Below are positions 41,789 to 52,492 of a stretch of 64,000 bases of DNA, piece after piece. The notes under the pieces are model-generated. The model saw nothing but the letters and a program-made list of their open reading frames with translations, did not search any database and was not told where the DNA came from. The stretch's first letter is position 1, and each line of letters starts with the position of its first letter. The position numbers were made by a program, and so were the translations under genes. The stretch is from Gammaproteobacteria bacterium. Its GTDB lineage: Bacteria > Pseudomonadota > Gammaproteobacteria > Magnimaribacterales > TMED112. The stretch covers positions 741,850-805,849 of the forward strand of contig JAYQTH010000002.1 of assembly GCA_038147295.1 (NCBI GenBank). The letters are read 5' to 3'.

Positions 41789-42171
41789 TTAACGGTTATT
41801 AGTATCTCTTCAGAATAAATTGGGTTGCTATGTGGAATATGTACATAGTTTCCAAGTAGCAACCTCAATCTGTATTCACCTTTAGGTAGCTCCAATACAG
41901 CTTCAGTCTGTCCCTTGCCAAAATGAATATGATTGCTATCAGCAGGGATTGGTTTAGTTAAATCGATTGGAAAATCAACGTTGATCAACAAGTGATGATG
42001 GCCGGTGTTATCAATATCGTAACCTGCAGGAGCAACGCCAAAATCCTTTAATCCAAAAACAACTTTTACTGGCCCTGAAATATTTGCTTTATTTTGCGGT
42101 TCAATAAAATAAAGTTCGGGTTCAGATAGTAGGATCTGAGATACGAGATAAATTAAAGCAAGCCTTTTAAT
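41785..42171 (-). CDS. DUF4399-like secreted protein; no canonical start codon (candidate ATT start)
   Basis: The frame is open from a TAA at 42190-42192 down to the stop at 41785. My translation is (I)KRLALIYLVSQILLSEPELYFIEPQNKANISGPVKVVFGLKDFGVAPAGYDIDNTGHHHLLINVDFPIDL...ILITVN, and the GHHHLL motif is typical of DUF4399. The only ATG/GTG/TTG in frame is the internal TTG used by the ORF track (68 aa), which would delete the signal peptide. The ATT at 42169-42171 is preceded by GGAGAAGGA. Confidence 0.6.
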   Translation of the reverse strand: MKRLALIYLVSQILLSEPELYFIEPQNKANISGPVKVVFGLKDFGVAPAGYDIDNTGHHHLLINVDFPIDLTKPIPADSNHIHFGKGQTEAVLELPKGEYRLRLLLGNYVHIPHSNPIYSEEILITVN

Positions 42172-49308: not shown

Positions 49309-50392
49309 ACTCTTCTACCTCGCGCCACACTCGAGCCGTATTACCACCTAAAATCTTAGCGATATCGCTTCTAGAATAACCACGTTTGTAAAGCTCTTCA
49401 ATTAAATTTGGAAATTGCGATACGTCCTTTAAGCCAATGGGCAGTGTATCCCCTACTCCATCATAGTCAGAACCAATCCCAACATGATCAATTCCTGCCA
49501 ATGAGACAGCACGATCGAAATGATCTACAACTTGTTCAAGGGTAGCAAAATTGTAGTCTTCCGTTGGATTGGCATCGTTAGTTCTTGCTTTATCTATAAT
49601 GAAACTTGAACCGAAATTAATTTGTAGAACTCCACCATTTTCTGCTAATTTGATCAACATTTCATCGGAGACATTCCTTTCCCAACCAGGTGTGAAATGT
49701 CTAAGCGAGGAGTGACTTGCAATCACAGGAGCTTTTGAAATTTCAAGCACTTGCATAAAAGCATCATCAGAAACATGAGAAATATCAATCATCATCCCAA
49801 CATTATTCATTTCGACAATAAGCTCTTTCCCGAACGGGCTTAAGCCTTTCCATCTTTTATTTTCATCGTATGATGAATCAGAAATATGATTACTCTCTGA
49901 ATGAGCCAAGGTTATGTAACGAATACCTTTATCATAAAAGTATCGAACTCTATCAAGCTGCCCTTCGATCGGAGCACCATTTTCCATCCCAAGAGCTATT
50001 CCAACTAAGTTTTGTCCAGCCAAATTCCCTAAATAGGTGCTTTGATCCAATAAAAAGTATTTATCATTATTTTCTTTAATCACATCATTAATAATGCCGA
50101 TTAATTGATTTGCTACCTCAAAACTAGTTCCATCAGTCTCAGTGCTGGCAGGCAAATAAATTGAAAAGAAAGGCACATTTAGTCCACCTGCAACTGCTCT
50201 AGGATAATCAAAATCAAAACTAGTTGATTCAGCTATATTTTCGAATTTTCCAGTTTCATCGAGTTGAGCCTTTAATCTATAGGGAATATCAATGTGTGTA
50301 TCAATAATCAAATGATCTTGGGCAAATTTATTTGCATCAAATTGAGTGGTGCAACTACCCAACAATAAAACCAATACAATTACTCTACTCAT
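49283..50392 (-). CDS. Membrane dipeptidase (peptidase M19), lipoprotein
   Basis: IDTHIDIPY, ITLAHS, IDISHVSD, ASHSS and IGSDYDG. I placed the start at MSRVIVLVLLLGSC (ATGAGTAG overlap with the SDR stop). Confidence 0.85.
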   Translation of the reverse strand: MSRVIVLVLLLGSCTTQFDANKFAQDHLIIDTHIDIPYRLKAQLDETGKFENIAESTSFDFDYPRAVAGGLNVPFFSIYLPASTETDGTSFEVANQLIGIINDVIKENNDKYFLLDQSTYLGNLAGQNLVGIALGMENGAPIEGQLDRVRYFYDKGIRYITLAHSESNHISDSSYDENKRWKGLSPFGKELIVEMNNVGMMIDISHVSDDAFMQVLEISKAPVIASHSSLRHFTPGWERNVSDEMLIKLAENGGVLQINFGSSFIIDKARTNDANPTEDYNFATLEQVVDHFDRAVSLAGIDHVGIGSDYDGVGDTLPIGLKDVSQFPNLIEELYKRGYSRSDIAKILGGNTARVWREVEEYAKNQSNR

Positions 50393-51182
50393 ATCTACCA
50401 CCTGCAATTTTATTACCAATAAACCTAATAAAGGATTTAGGTAAATAGCTTAAGCCACTAACTAAAAATCTATAGATACCACCAGAAATTACTATCTCTT
50501 TATTTTTAAACATTCCATCTATTCCCTCTTTAGCAACATGTTCTGCTGAATACTTCATAAATTTTGGCACCTTATCCATCCTATCCTGCGTGCCACTAAC
50601 GCTATGAAATTCAGTGATAGTAAAACCTGGGCACAATGCTGTTGCATAGATATTGTGCTTGTTATAGGCAACATTCAAAGCTTCAACAAATCTATTCATG
50701 AAGGTTTTTACAGGACCATACAAGGTAGCAAATTCTCCAGATGGTGGTGCAAATCCAGCAACAGACGAAACTACCATTATTCTACCGCCCCCACGATTAA
50801 TTAATGTTTTTATGAACAGTTTGCTTTGCATAATAACCGACAGGCCTAACACTCTTAAACAATCTTCTTCGTCCTCTAGTGATACATCCTCAAATTTTTT
50901 GTGGTGTTGGTAGCCAGCATTAAGAATTAATACCTCAACATCTATATTATTTTGTTCAACATAGTTAAAAATATTTTGTGGTGCATCCTTGTTTGTTAGG
51001 TCTTCTGTCAAATAGTCGACCTTTATGTTGAATTTATTTTGCAGCTCCTTTGAAATGTCCTTTAATCTTTCTTCTCTGCGTGCAACCAAAATAAGGTTGT
51101 ATCCTCTTTCTGCTAATTGATAAGAAATAGCTTTTCCAATACCAGCTGTAGGACCGGTAATAATTGCATAACTCATAGTCAC
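50385..51182 (-). CDS. Short-chain dehydrogenase/reductase
   Basis: 265 aa with ITGPTAGIG, NAG and the catalytic S...Y...K arrangement (YGPVK). Confidence 0.9.
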   Translation of the reverse strand: MTMSYAIITGPTAGIGKAISYQLAERGYNLILVARREERLKDISKELQNKFNIKVDYLTEDLTNKDAPQNIFNYVEQNNIDVEVLILNAGYQHHKKFEDVSLEDEEDCLRVLGLSVIMQSKLFIKTLINRGGGRIMVVSSVAGFAPPSGEFATLYGPVKTFMNRFVEALNVAYNKHNIYATALCPGFTITEFHSVSGTQDRMDKVPKFMKYSAEHVAKEGIDGMFKNKEIVISGGIYRFLVSGLSYLPKSFIRFIGNKIAGGRYE

Positions 51183-51391
51183 CTCCTTTAAATTAAATTA
51201 TAGATTTAAATTTGATAAAAAAATAATTTAATATTGATTATTTAATAATCACTTTGGTTATTTTTTAATCATAAAGAAATTTAATAATTTAATTAATTAA
51301 ACTTTTTTTATTTTTTTTATGCTCCGGAAGTAACTTAAATAAGGGTTTTAGAGAATAAGAAAAAAAAGTAGTATTTTTTTTTACATTATAC

Positions 51392-51418
51392 TTGCATAAA
51401 GAAATTCTCTTTTATAAA
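51392..51418 (+). promoter_or_regulatory. Candidate sigma70 promoter for the intergenic RNA
   Basis: TTGCAT (51392-51397), a 15-nt spacer, then TATAAA (51413-51418). The spacer is shorter than optimal, so this call is tentative. Confidence 0.3.
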
Positions 51419-51424
51419 GTAGTC

Positions 51425-51650
51425 CTTACCTCGCGGTAACAGACTAAGAAGGGAACTGCAGAACCCAAATTAGAAAGAAACCACAGGCAGAGAACAGAAA
51501 GGTGAAAGTTCAAGTAAGCTAGCCGGCAAAAAAGCAAACTTGACCACCAAGGATAAAAGAGATCTTATCCAAGGATGCAAAAGATAATCTCACTTTTGAC
51601 ACCTACTGATCTCGAACTTAAAGAAAACTGAGCTTGCTCAGTTTTTTTTT
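51425..51650 (+). ncRNA. Candidate structured small RNA or pheA 5-prime leader (unclassified)
   Basis: A ~225-nt segment has about 41% G+C by hand count over 51421-51620. The flank at 51241-51340 has about 15%. The segment is strongly purine-rich and has no ORF above 18 codons. Local hairpins include GGTG..TCAAGT/ACTTGA.CACC at 51501-51549, GGATAA/TTATCC at 51551-51570 and CAAAAG/CTTTTG at 51578-51598. It ends in a strong intrinsic terminator. The 5-prime end is an estimate. Confidence 0.4.
51624..51650 (+). terminator. Intrinsic terminator
   Basis: The sequence AAAACTGAG-CTTG-CTCAGTTTTTTTTT is a stem with a tetraloop, A-tract/U-tract extension and a 9-T run. It lies 27 nt upstream of the pheA GTG. 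Confidence 0.7.
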
Positions 51651-51676
51651 GTCTAAAAAATCATTACAATCCAATC

Positions 51677-52492
51677 GTGAAAGTTTTCTACCTAGGCCCT
51701 GAGGGCACGAACTCTAATTTAGCAGCGCAAGAAATATTTACTGCAGAGTTTGACTATGTTCCTCTTCCTTCAATTGAGGACATATTTCAAAAGGTAGCTT
51801 TAAGTCATTCTTATTATGGCGTTATTCCATTTGAAAATTCATATCAAGGCGTAATAAATTCGTCATTAAATTGTCTGATCGATTACGATTTAAAAATTGT
51901 AAAAGAACTTAATTTTGCCATCAGCCATTCTTTTTGCTCATCTAATAAAGATGTTGCAGATATAAATGTTCTAAAAATTGCTAGCCATCCTCAGGTTCTT
52001 GGTCAATGTAATTATTGGTTGAGTAGCAATTATCCAAATGCAGAAAAAATTGTCTGCACAAGCACTGCAGAGGCAGCAAAAATGGCTAGTGATAATGCTG
52101 ATATCTTTTGTATTGCTAATGAATATGCAATTAAGCTGTTCAATTTATATTCTCATGCAAAAGATATACAGGATTCATCTAACAACTCAACAAGATTTTT
52201 AGTAATTGGCAAGATGATTGAGGAACGTTCATCATCAAACAAGACATCGATTATGGTTAATATTGCTGATACTCCTGGATCGCTTATGAAAATTTTGCAA
52301 CCCTTTTCAGATTTGGCTATAAATATGACACGTATAGAAACAAGACCCTCTAGAAATAACCAATATTTACATACTTTTTTTATAGATTTTGAAGGTTGGT
52401 ATGAAGATAGCAACATACAGAAACTATTAAATATTTTGGAAGATATTTCAGAAGAATTACGAATAATAGGTTCTTATCCGGTAAAGTCTTAA
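51677..52492 (+). CDS. pheA: Prephenate dehydratase (PDT + ACT domains, monofunctional)
   Basis: 271 aa with YLGPEGTNS, IPFENS..G, TRF and the ACT region S.....PG.L...L..F.....NMTRIETRP. The start is GTG. Confidence 0.85.
   Translation: MKVFYLGPEGTNSNLAAQEIFTAEFDYVPLPSIEDIFQKVALSHSYYGVIPFENSYQGVINSSLNCLIDYDLKIVKELNFAISHSFCSSNKDVADINVLKIASHPQVLGQCNYWLSSNYPNAEKIVCTSTAEAAKMASDNADIFCIANEYAIKLFNLYSHAKDIQDSSNNSTRFLVIGKMIEERSSSNKTSIMVNIADTPGSLMKILQPFSDLAINMTRIETRPSRNNQYLHTFFIDFEGWYEDSNIQKLLNILEDISEELRIIGSYPVKS

Follow-up and report, generated by a model that had tools for sequence, protein, structure and literature searches.

An IMES-1 RNA gene with self-complementary loops upstream of pheA in a SAR86 bacterium

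An IMES-1 RNA gene in the gap before pheA

The window analyzed here is a stretch of 64,000 nt from contig JAYQTH010000002.1 (assembly GCA_038147295.1) of a gammaproteobacterium of the SAR86 cluster (Magnimaribacterales). Its largest stretch without an open reading frame (ORF) of at least 70 aa is a gap of 494 nt at 51183-51676, which lies between a divergent dehydrogenase/reductase gene and a pheA-like gene; the next largest gaps measure 364, 267 and 203 nt. The Rfam model of the IMES-1 RNA (RF02034) matches 51434-51626 of this gap on the plus strand at E = 2.6e-29, its 136.2 bits lying well above the gathering score of 81. The match is untruncated, covering model positions 1-191 of 191, and is the single non-tRNA match in the Rfam scan of the whole window. 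A permissive local search returned RF02034 at E = 2.8e-31 and no other family at E up to 1; in particular, no riboswitch, T-box, 6S, Csr or Rsm model matched. The motifs AACUGCAGA, GGUGAAAG, CCACCAAG, AAGAGA, CAAGG and AAUCUCA of the family are all found in the window copy. A first-pass annotation of this DNA, which had failed to match the element to 6S or T-box RNAs by eye, in agreement with the search, had called it an orphan. The RF02034 hit refutes that label: the element is real and well defined, but it belongs to an already known family. The features of the locus are as follows.

50385-51182 (-): short-chain dehydrogenase/reductase (SDR) gene, divergent upstream neighbor, outside the RNA unit (Pfam adh_short, E = 2.6e-37)
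51360-51391 (+): A-run followed by a T-run directly upstream of the -35 hexamer, resembling an UP element
51392-51397 (+): predicted -35 hexamer TTGCAT, aligning with the near-invariant GTGTTGACA of mainstream copies
51413-51418 (+): predicted -10 hexamer TATAAA after a 15-nt spacer, from the alignment with homologues
51427-51650 (+): predicted IMES-1 transcript of about 224 nt; start predicted to about 3 nt, on the basis of the -10 hexamer and the onset of conservation (UACC)
51429-51487 (+): P1 arm of stacked helices CCU/AGG, GGU/ACC, CUAA/UUAG and GGG/CCC, in the minimum free energy (MFE) fold
51434-51626 (+): RF02034 (IMES-1) match, full length, 136.2 bits
51456-51461 (+): L1 palindrome CUGCAG in the 10-nt apical loop AACUGCAGAA (51454-51463), proposed symmetric kissing-loop site; palindrome in 62 of 62 homologues
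51490-51497 (+): 5' strand of P2, which closes the multi-helix junction by pairing with 51606-51613 (GAGA/UCUC and CAG/CUG in the MFE fold; Rfam helix)
51502-51509 (+): GUGAAAGU, possible 2-bp mini-hairpin with a GAAA tetraloop (RNAalifold; weak support)
51510-51543 (+): P3 hairpin, 95.7% paired in the family, nine pairs, all changed on both sides
51522-51527 (+): L3 palindrome GCCGGC in the apical loop of P3, proposed second symmetric kissing-loop site; overlapped by GCUAGC at 51518-51523
51544-51552 (+): junction CCACCAAGG, with CCACC-AG invariant in both alignments (A1 and A2, see below)
51551-51570 (+): P4 hairpin GGAUAA/UUAUCC, loop with an invariant GAGA; 93.4% paired, 5 of 6 pairs changed on both sides
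51570-51578 (+): linker CAAGGAUGC (family version CAAGGAGC), the second CsrA-like element of the first-pass annotation
51578-51598 (+): P5 hairpin CAAAAG/CUUUUG, invariant loop AAUCUCA at 51586-51592; 91.9% paired, 4 of 6 pairs changed on both sides
51606-51613 (+): 3' strand of P2 (CUGAUCUC; Rfam helix and MFE fold)
51624-51650 (+): intrinsic terminator with a 9-bp stem (51624-51645), a CUUG loop and a T9 run (51642-51650), from hairpin scan and fold
51664-51672 (+): TTACAATCC between terminator and pheA, conserved in the sub-lineage; possible -10 box TACAAT at 51665-51670
51677-52492 (+): pheA-like gene (prephenate dehydratase with an ACT domain), downstream neighbor, outside the RNA unit (Pfam PDT, E = 9.8e-53)

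The name IMES-1 reportedly stands for "identified in marine environmental sequences," and the RNA is said to have been described by Weinberg, Perreault, Meyer and Breaker in Nature in 2009. Shi, Tyson and DeLong, reportedly in the same journal and year, counted IMES-1 RNAs among the highly abundant putative small RNAs (psRNAs). The 2009 reports are said to place IMES-1 among the most abundant RNAs of surface-ocean metatranscriptomes, without a cultivated host or an assigned function. Our literature search, whose coverage does not extend to the 2009 original descriptions, turned up no mention of IMES-1 and no link between SAR86 and small RNAs. The window copy shares with the family the full-length match above threshold, all family helices, the conserved motifs and the marine gammaproteobacterial origin. 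Compared with the mainstream SAR86 copies it is divergent, scoring 136 bits as against 185-206 bits. Its own traits are the GGG/CCC helix of P1c, another register of P2, the GCCGGC palindrome in L3 and a weaker-looking promoter.

The composition of the gap changes at the border of the RNA. The left part (51183-51419) has a G+C content of 15.6%, whereas the RNA part has 39.7-39.9% G+C and 59-64% purines, compared with 34.5% and 50% in the whole window. The only plus-strand ORF of at least 20 aa in the gap (51634-51702) overlaps the start of pheA; minus-strand ORFs of 41, 36 and 27 aa also occur. Most of what the first-pass annotation had read from the letters is borne out here, namely a single large non-coding gap upstream of pheA, its AT-rich left half, the jump in composition with a purine bias and the lack of a meaningful ORF, since no plus-strand ORF of at least 20 aa lies wholly inside the RNA and the 18-codon ORF it had listed has no Phe codon. 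Its G+C estimate of about 41% was slightly above the measured value. Both CAAGGAU elements that it had pointed out are present, the second at 51568-51578 as given and the first at 51546-51556, one base away from the position it had assigned. The second-largest gap in the window by the same ORF criterion, at 41789-42152 (364 nt), has no Rfam match.

A conserved fold between promoter and terminator

A set of 62 distinct IMES-1 sequences was assembled from pattern scans for the conserved core and from contigs encoding the neighbor proteins. The core-pattern scan over one genome per species gave 120 loci, of which about two-thirds were chance matches owing to loose gaps in the pattern, and these were filtered with nhmmer. 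The recovered genome homologues score 107-206 bits, all above the Rfam threshold. A pattern scan of metagenomes gave 7 loci, one of them a chance match, and a scan of viral contigs for the IMES-1 pattern gave 0 matches.

The window RNA has an MFE of -57.8 kcal/mol (z = -2.9 against shuffles), and its MFE fold reproduces P1, P2, P3, P4, P5 and the terminator. For the family, we counted pairing in the Rfam consensus structure plus the terminator on a MAFFT alignment of 39 sequences (A1). In this alignment, 88.7% of the cells are paired, as opposed to 26-48% when the partners are slid by 1-3 columns; 33 of the 45 pairs have changed on both sides, and none of 500 shuffles reached the observed values. 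The relatives thus show covariation, and the local hairpins noticed in the first pass are found in the folds of both the window RNA and the family. The best-supported helices are P3 (9/9 pairs changed on both sides), P4 (5/6) and P1 (all pairs). Helices 1-3 of P1 are 85-88% paired in the family, with changes on both sides at every pair, and P1c, the helix of 2-3 bp that closes loop AACUGCAGAC, covaries between CC/GG, GGG/CCC, GC/GC and CU/AG. P2 is 72.8% paired, and 4 of its 6 pairs have changed on both sides. In the GUGAAAGU element, the GAAAG core is invariant and 97% of the cells are paired, with U-G changing to C-G on one side only.

Sequence conservation is also high outside the helices. 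There are 47 invariant columns across the 39 sequences of A1 and 44 across all 62 (A2), mainly in junctions and loops, a distribution typical of RNAs with a tertiary structure or a specific partner. In the linker CAAGGAUGC, the C, A, G and G are invariant across A2, and the full CAAGG is invariant in A1. The GAGA of the P4 loop (51559-51562) and the UCUC of the P5 loop (51588-51591) are complementary to each other, and both are invariant throughout the family; the two loops could make contact, either within one molecule or between molecules.

Several further pairings were considered and rejected. A pseudoknot between UCGA in L3 and the 3' CUCGA does not hold up, because L3 shifts to UGCA, UAUA or UUAA and the 3' CUCGA does not change along with it. 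A GGUG/CACC helix closing P3 forms part of the MFE fold of the window RNA; homologues, however, have GGCG or GGAG in place of GGUG without compensation. The pairing of the 5' UACC with GGUG shows no covariation. The pairing of the junction AGAG with the terminator CUCU proposed by RNAalifold was judged to be an artifact of invariant columns.

Conservation of the sequence is bounded by a promoter on the 5' side and by the terminator on the 3' side. Mainstream copies begin with A/T tracts followed by GTGTTGACA, N16 and TAATAT (TTGACA-N16-TAATAT), and about 7 nt later by a conserved (U)ACC. An (A)7-9...(T)5-9 pattern is kept 5' of the -35 hexamer in nearly all homologues, with no conservation further upstream, and within the sub-lineage of the window the -35 is conserved as TTGCA. 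A simple promoter scan missed the window promoter because its spacer limits were 16-18 nt. Taken with the homologues, the window promoter is strongly supported as a putative sigma-70-type promoter with UP-like A/T tracts.

At the other end, the terminator hairpin and its T-run (ACAGAGC-loop-GCUCUG-U9) are kept in all homologues regardless of the downstream gene. The consensus scan gave the hairpin on the minus strand only, and the plus-strand reading rests on the 3' T9 run, which is kept in every homologue. The Rfam model ends short of this conserved terminator, which nevertheless belongs to the unit. The predicted length of about 224 nt matches the size of about 225 nt proposed in the first pass, and the strong terminator placed there at 51624-51650 is confirmed with its 9-bp stem and T9 run.

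Hosts and genomic neighbors of IMES-1

IMES-1 was recovered in single-amplified genomes (SAGs) and metagenome-assembled genomes (MAGs) of the SAR86 cluster, including the complete genome CP097973.1 and SAR86A, and a few unclassified gammaproteobacterial MAGs also carry it. The locus closest to that of the window is found in the SAR86 MAG MED-G83 (L017), where four neighbor proteins are 94-97% identical to those of the window (96% for the SDR protein). The G+C content of the window, 33-38%, falls within the range of 31-40% given for SAR86 (PMC11582366). Because a Porticoccaceae (HTCC2207-group) MAG of 43% G+C carries a good copy (L029 2574-2808, 168.6 bits) with stems richer in G+C, the family is not confined to SAR86, and some of the additional lineages may be easier to culture. 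That copy adjoins tRNA and ferredoxin genes.

A few other observations concern the assemblies. One contig binned as "Candidatus Neomarinimicrobiota" (L108 293-525) has IMES-1 in an aceE context near-identical to that of a SAR86 SAG (L106 4945-5178), and it is probably mis-binned. Many of the metagenome contigs with an IDO-like gene (L138-L147, L152, L153, L156 and L157) break off 10-330 nt upstream of it, at the site of IMES-1. This suggests that assemblies break at repeated or micro-diverse IMES-1 copies, and IMES-1 may be under-represented in MAGs. A SAR86 SAG has, at L068 3102-3277 (+), a tandem array of three glutamine riboswitch aptamers (RF01739), each scoring 66-69 bits, beside an ammonium-transporter-like gene and about 2 kb from its IMES-1 copy.

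The neighbors of IMES-1 vary among genomes. The commonest order is a divergent IDO-like gene, one or two IMES-1 copies, pyruvate kinase and aceE: the IDO-like gene is divergent upstream at 14 loci, pyruvate kinase lies downstream at 12 and aceE at 3, and other genes, such as those for a sodium-solute symporter, a TonB receptor and a monooxygenase, lie downstream singly. A convergent gene lies downstream in about 8 contexts, roughly half of the distinct ones. At no fewer than seven loci IMES-1 is duplicated in tandem, every copy having a promoter and a terminator to itself, and the copies lie about 300 nt apart (L074 1607-2141, L120 2201-2757, L128, L148, L150, L151 and L154); L018 and L070 form a further pair, about 5 kb apart on one contig. 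The order SDR-IMES-1-pheA was found only in the SAR86 sub-lineage of the window (the window, L017, L027 and L158-L170), with pheA identities of 70-97%, and it is inherited synteny. Because the same RNA elsewhere precedes unrelated genes or faces convergent ones, IMES-1 is a free-standing gene; that it is an autonomous and often duplicated RNA gene, to which pheA is merely a neighbor in one sub-lineage, is strongly supported.

The first-pass annotation had left two options open, an independent small RNA and a conditional-termination leader of pheA. The promoter and terminator that IMES-1 carries in every context support the former. In the latter, a riboswitch-like or protein-mediated leader would act in cis, its terminator conditionally stopping transcription from the IMES-1 promoter, and the position of pheA on the same strand, 27 nt past the terminator, fits this, as does the SDR-IMES-1-pheA order maintained across the sub-lineage down to 70% pheA identity. 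However, in other SAR86 genomes this RNA, together with its promoter and terminator, stands before pyruvate kinase, aceE, sodium-solute symporter or TonB receptor genes or opposite a convergent gene, and it also occurs in tandem copies. Neither a leader-peptide ORF nor any riboswitch or T-box match at E up to 1 was found, the terminator stem and U9 are invariant and strong with no conserved antiterminator alternative seen, and the spacer that separates the terminator from pheA contains a conserved TACAAT box. The leader explanation is largely refuted by the variable context, and we give it hardly any credence. A Phe leader-peptide attenuator of the pheL type is excluded, since no plus-strand ORF of at least 20 aa lies inside the RNA. 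The enterobacterial pheL-pheA attenuator has in common with this locus a terminator just 5' of pheA, but IMES-1 has no Phe-rich leader ORF, keeps no constant link with pheA from genome to genome and combines a promoter of its own with a structured body that is conserved.

How pheA itself might be transcribed was considered as well. The first-pass annotation had proposed an internal promoter TTGACA-N17-TAAAGA, and the letters are as stated, with TTGACA at 51596-51601 and TAAAGA at 51619-51624. This promoter has no independent support, because its hexamers are conserved elements of the RNA: TTGACA is made up of the 3' strand of P5 and a conserved GAC, and most homologues have UUAGAC there irrespective of the next gene. 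In the spacer between terminator and pheA, TTACAATCC is kept in 7 of 7 aligned sub-lineage members, with pheA identity down to 70%, while the other spacer sequence diverges. It is found at the same place in L017, L027 and L158-L161, with the last base of its TACAAT 7 nt ahead of the GTG or ATG. If TTACAATCC acts as a -10 element, the pheA mRNA could be leaderless or have a very short leader. In mainstream copies, CTTGCA similarly follows directly on the terminator, ahead of pyk. Public gene calls (L161-L170 3001-3843; L027) give a pheA of 280 aa whose ATG falls within the last part of the T-run that belongs to the IMES-1 terminator; the start that yields 271 aa (MK(V/I)F(Y/F)LGPEG) is more likely, and the 280-aa calls are probably over-extended.

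Self-complementary loops and possible function in trans

Two apical loops of IMES-1 contain self-complementary hexamers. The L1 hexamer is a Watson-Crick palindrome in 62 of 62 sequences, mostly CUGCAG, with CUCGAG in 6, CUUAAG in 1 and CUAUAG in 1, so that the central pair is GC in 54, CG in 6 and UA in 2. The L3 hexamer is more variable. Mainstream copies have GUCGAU, GUCGAC, GUCGGC, GUGCAU, GUAUAC or GUUAAC at a fixed position, with CG (36), UA (6), AU (4) or GC (2) as the central pair; the sub-lineage of the window has GCCGGC, GCAUGC or GUCGAC at its fixed position, and other lineages have GCUAGC. Ten L3 variants occur in all, and L3 is self-complementary in 62 of 62 sequences when G-U pairs are allowed and the stem-overlapping palindrome of L062 is counted. 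In the fixed palindrome columns, 94.4% of the cells pair, compared with 23-55% when the columns are slid, and L1 and L3 are the only apical-loop positions with such a hexamer in every sequence. A permutation test on the ten L3 types was circular, as these had been selected for self-complementarity; it was set aside, and the counts at fixed columns and fixed positions were used instead. The GUCGAC variant of the sub-lineage (L160) comes from sequences gathered after the hypothesis had been formed and so serves as a small test of its prediction, which it fits.

Symmetric kissing loops are suggested because the palindromes vary yet stay palindromic, with adjacent central bases co-varying. Other explanations of this pattern were rejected. 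Adjacent bases cannot pair within one chain, which excludes intrachain pairing of the palindrome centers; L1 shows no complementarity to L3; pairing of L3 with the 3' CUCGA shows no co-variation; and a protein site would not tolerate the free exchange of central bases. The L1 and L3 hexamers would instead pair with the same loop of another IMES-1 copy, and since each molecule would have two homotypic sites, the products could be dimers, rings or chains. That IMES-1 self-associates through symmetric kissing loops at L1 and L3 is a tentative proposal, the case for it being close to evenly balanced. That IMES-1, at its reportedly very high cellular abundance, exists as such an assembly (dimers, rings or chains), and that the assembly and not the monomer is the functional species, appears possible to us, with the balance tilting slightly the other way. 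As to its mode of action, IMES-1 most likely works in trans, probably as a structural or sequestering RNA of very high abundance whose copies associate with one another.

The dimerization initiation site (DIS) of human immunodeficiency virus type 1 (HIV-1) has a 6-nt palindrome flanked by purines in an apical loop of 9-10 nt (AA-GCGCGC-A), and its natural variants switch palindromes. L1 of IMES-1 (AA-CUGCAG-AC) is alike, and the computed loop-to-loop duplex energies are similar: L1 gives -9.9 kcal/mol and the window L3 gives -14.7 kcal/mol, compared with -10.9 and -13.9 kcal/mol for HIV-1 DIS loops in the same computation. The biology is unrelated, however, and L1 of IMES-1 is closed by 2-3 bp. 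Parallels also exist with GOLLD, reportedly found in the same 2009 metagenome screen as IMES-1, and with OLE and ROOL. These three RNAs form RNA-only homo-oligomers whose copies are joined through symmetric kissing loops, as Kretsch et al. showed (Nature 2025, PMC12286853). For L9.3 of OLE (GGCC, GAUC, AGCU) and L21a of GOLLD (GC, CG), the same covariation argument was confirmed by cryo-electron microscopy (PMC12286853). In IMES-1, the L1 and L3 loops are likewise self-complementary, with adjacent central nucleotides co-varying between palindromes. In contrast to those RNAs of 600-800 nt, IMES-1 measures about 190-225 nt, and its multimers are predicted from sequence patterns.

Several points weigh against self-association and against the wider picture built on it. 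The proposal is drawn entirely from patterns in aligned sequences, and the number of independent changes is modest (L1, about 3; L3, roughly 8-9). Only 2-3 bp close the L1 loop, and in L062 the L3 palindrome overlaps the stem. The window promoter is weaker on paper than that of mainstream copies (TTGCAT, a 15-nt spacer and TATAAA), and the transcript ends are predicted ones. Furthermore, "structural or sequestering RNA" would name a class of mechanism and not a demonstrated function, and the high abundance of IMES-1 is that reported in 2009.

Other modes of action in trans have to be weighed against a self-associating RNA. A base-pairing small RNA, or a CrcZ-like sponge that binds Hfq through ARN-type stretches and a U-rich 3' end, would account for the purine- and A-rich single strands (AGAAAGAAA, AAGAGA and the A6 in L3), the Rho-independent terminator with its long U tail and the free-standing gene with variable neighbors. 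The structure, however, is far more conserved than that of typical seed-type small RNAs, and purine-rich strands would not pair with ribosome-binding sites. Nothing specific speaks for a role linked to Hfq, and we regard this explanation as improbable.

A sponge of the CsrB/RsmZ type, whose AAGGA motifs would titrate the translational repressor CsrA, was raised by the first-pass annotation on the strength of its CAAGGAU elements. There are up to four (A/C)AAGGA motifs in IMES-1, and CAAGGA(G/U)GC is almost invariant in the linker between two hairpins; in addition, IMES-1 occurs in several copies and is reportedly very abundant, as is often the case for sponge RNAs. CsrB, CsrC, RsmX, RsmY and RsmZ resemble IMES-1 in being abundant, sometimes multi-copy and free-standing, with their own terminator and A(N)GGA motifs. 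However, GGA is not enriched in IMES-1. The window copy has three GGA motifs, as counted earlier, where 3.9 are expected, and the family mean is 4.73 compared with 5.04 in dinucleotide shuffles. The GGAs of the window copy lie outside hairpin loops: one borders the P1c stem, another belongs to the 5' strand of P4 and the third falls in the linker from P4 to P5. No GacA/UvrY box (TGTAAGN6CTTACA) was found in the gap; the sole match there has 3 mismatches and overlaps the -10/+1 region, and across the window such 3-mismatch matches number 29, with 39 expected by chance. No Csr or Rsm model of Rfam matched, and the elaborate covarying, tertiary-looking fold with 44 invariant columns is unlike that of the Csr and Rsm RNAs. 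The suggestion is unsupported by these results, and a CsrA sponge seems to us a rather remote prospect. Searches by tblastn with E. coli CsrA, Hfq and ProQ gave nothing in the window and the 120 loci, a result that is uninformative given the partial coverage of the genomes, and Hfq, CsrA and non-coding RNAs are not mentioned in the SAR86 isolate paper (PMC11582366).

A functional analogue of 6S RNA, sequestering RNA polymerase, would find its only argument in an abundance that the 2009 literature reportedly put on a par with 6S RNA. No 6S model of Rfam matched, and the covariation-supported fold branches at a multi-helix junction and lacks the rod shape and the central bubble resembling an open promoter, which leaves this explanation with almost no weight.

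As a whole, the locus is probably best explained as an IMES-1 RNA gene of a SAR86 (Magnimaribacterales) bacterium, free-standing with its own promoter and terminator, whose product would be a trans-acting, self-associating RNA. Within this explanation, identity, autonomy, fold and the lack of cis control over pheA are either directly observed or strongly supported. The element is thus a true structured RNA, yet a known one, unconnected with the regulation of pheA. The window and its related loci place IMES-1 firmly in SAR86/Magnimaribacterales, with at least one Porticoccaceae MAG in addition. What is contributed here is the assignment of SAR86 as host, the autonomy and frequent duplication of the gene, the anatomy of its promoter and terminator and a testable hypothesis of self-assembly. 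If that hypothesis is true, IMES-1 would be, in principle, a small relative of the RNA-only quaternary assemblies OLE, ROOL and GOLLD.

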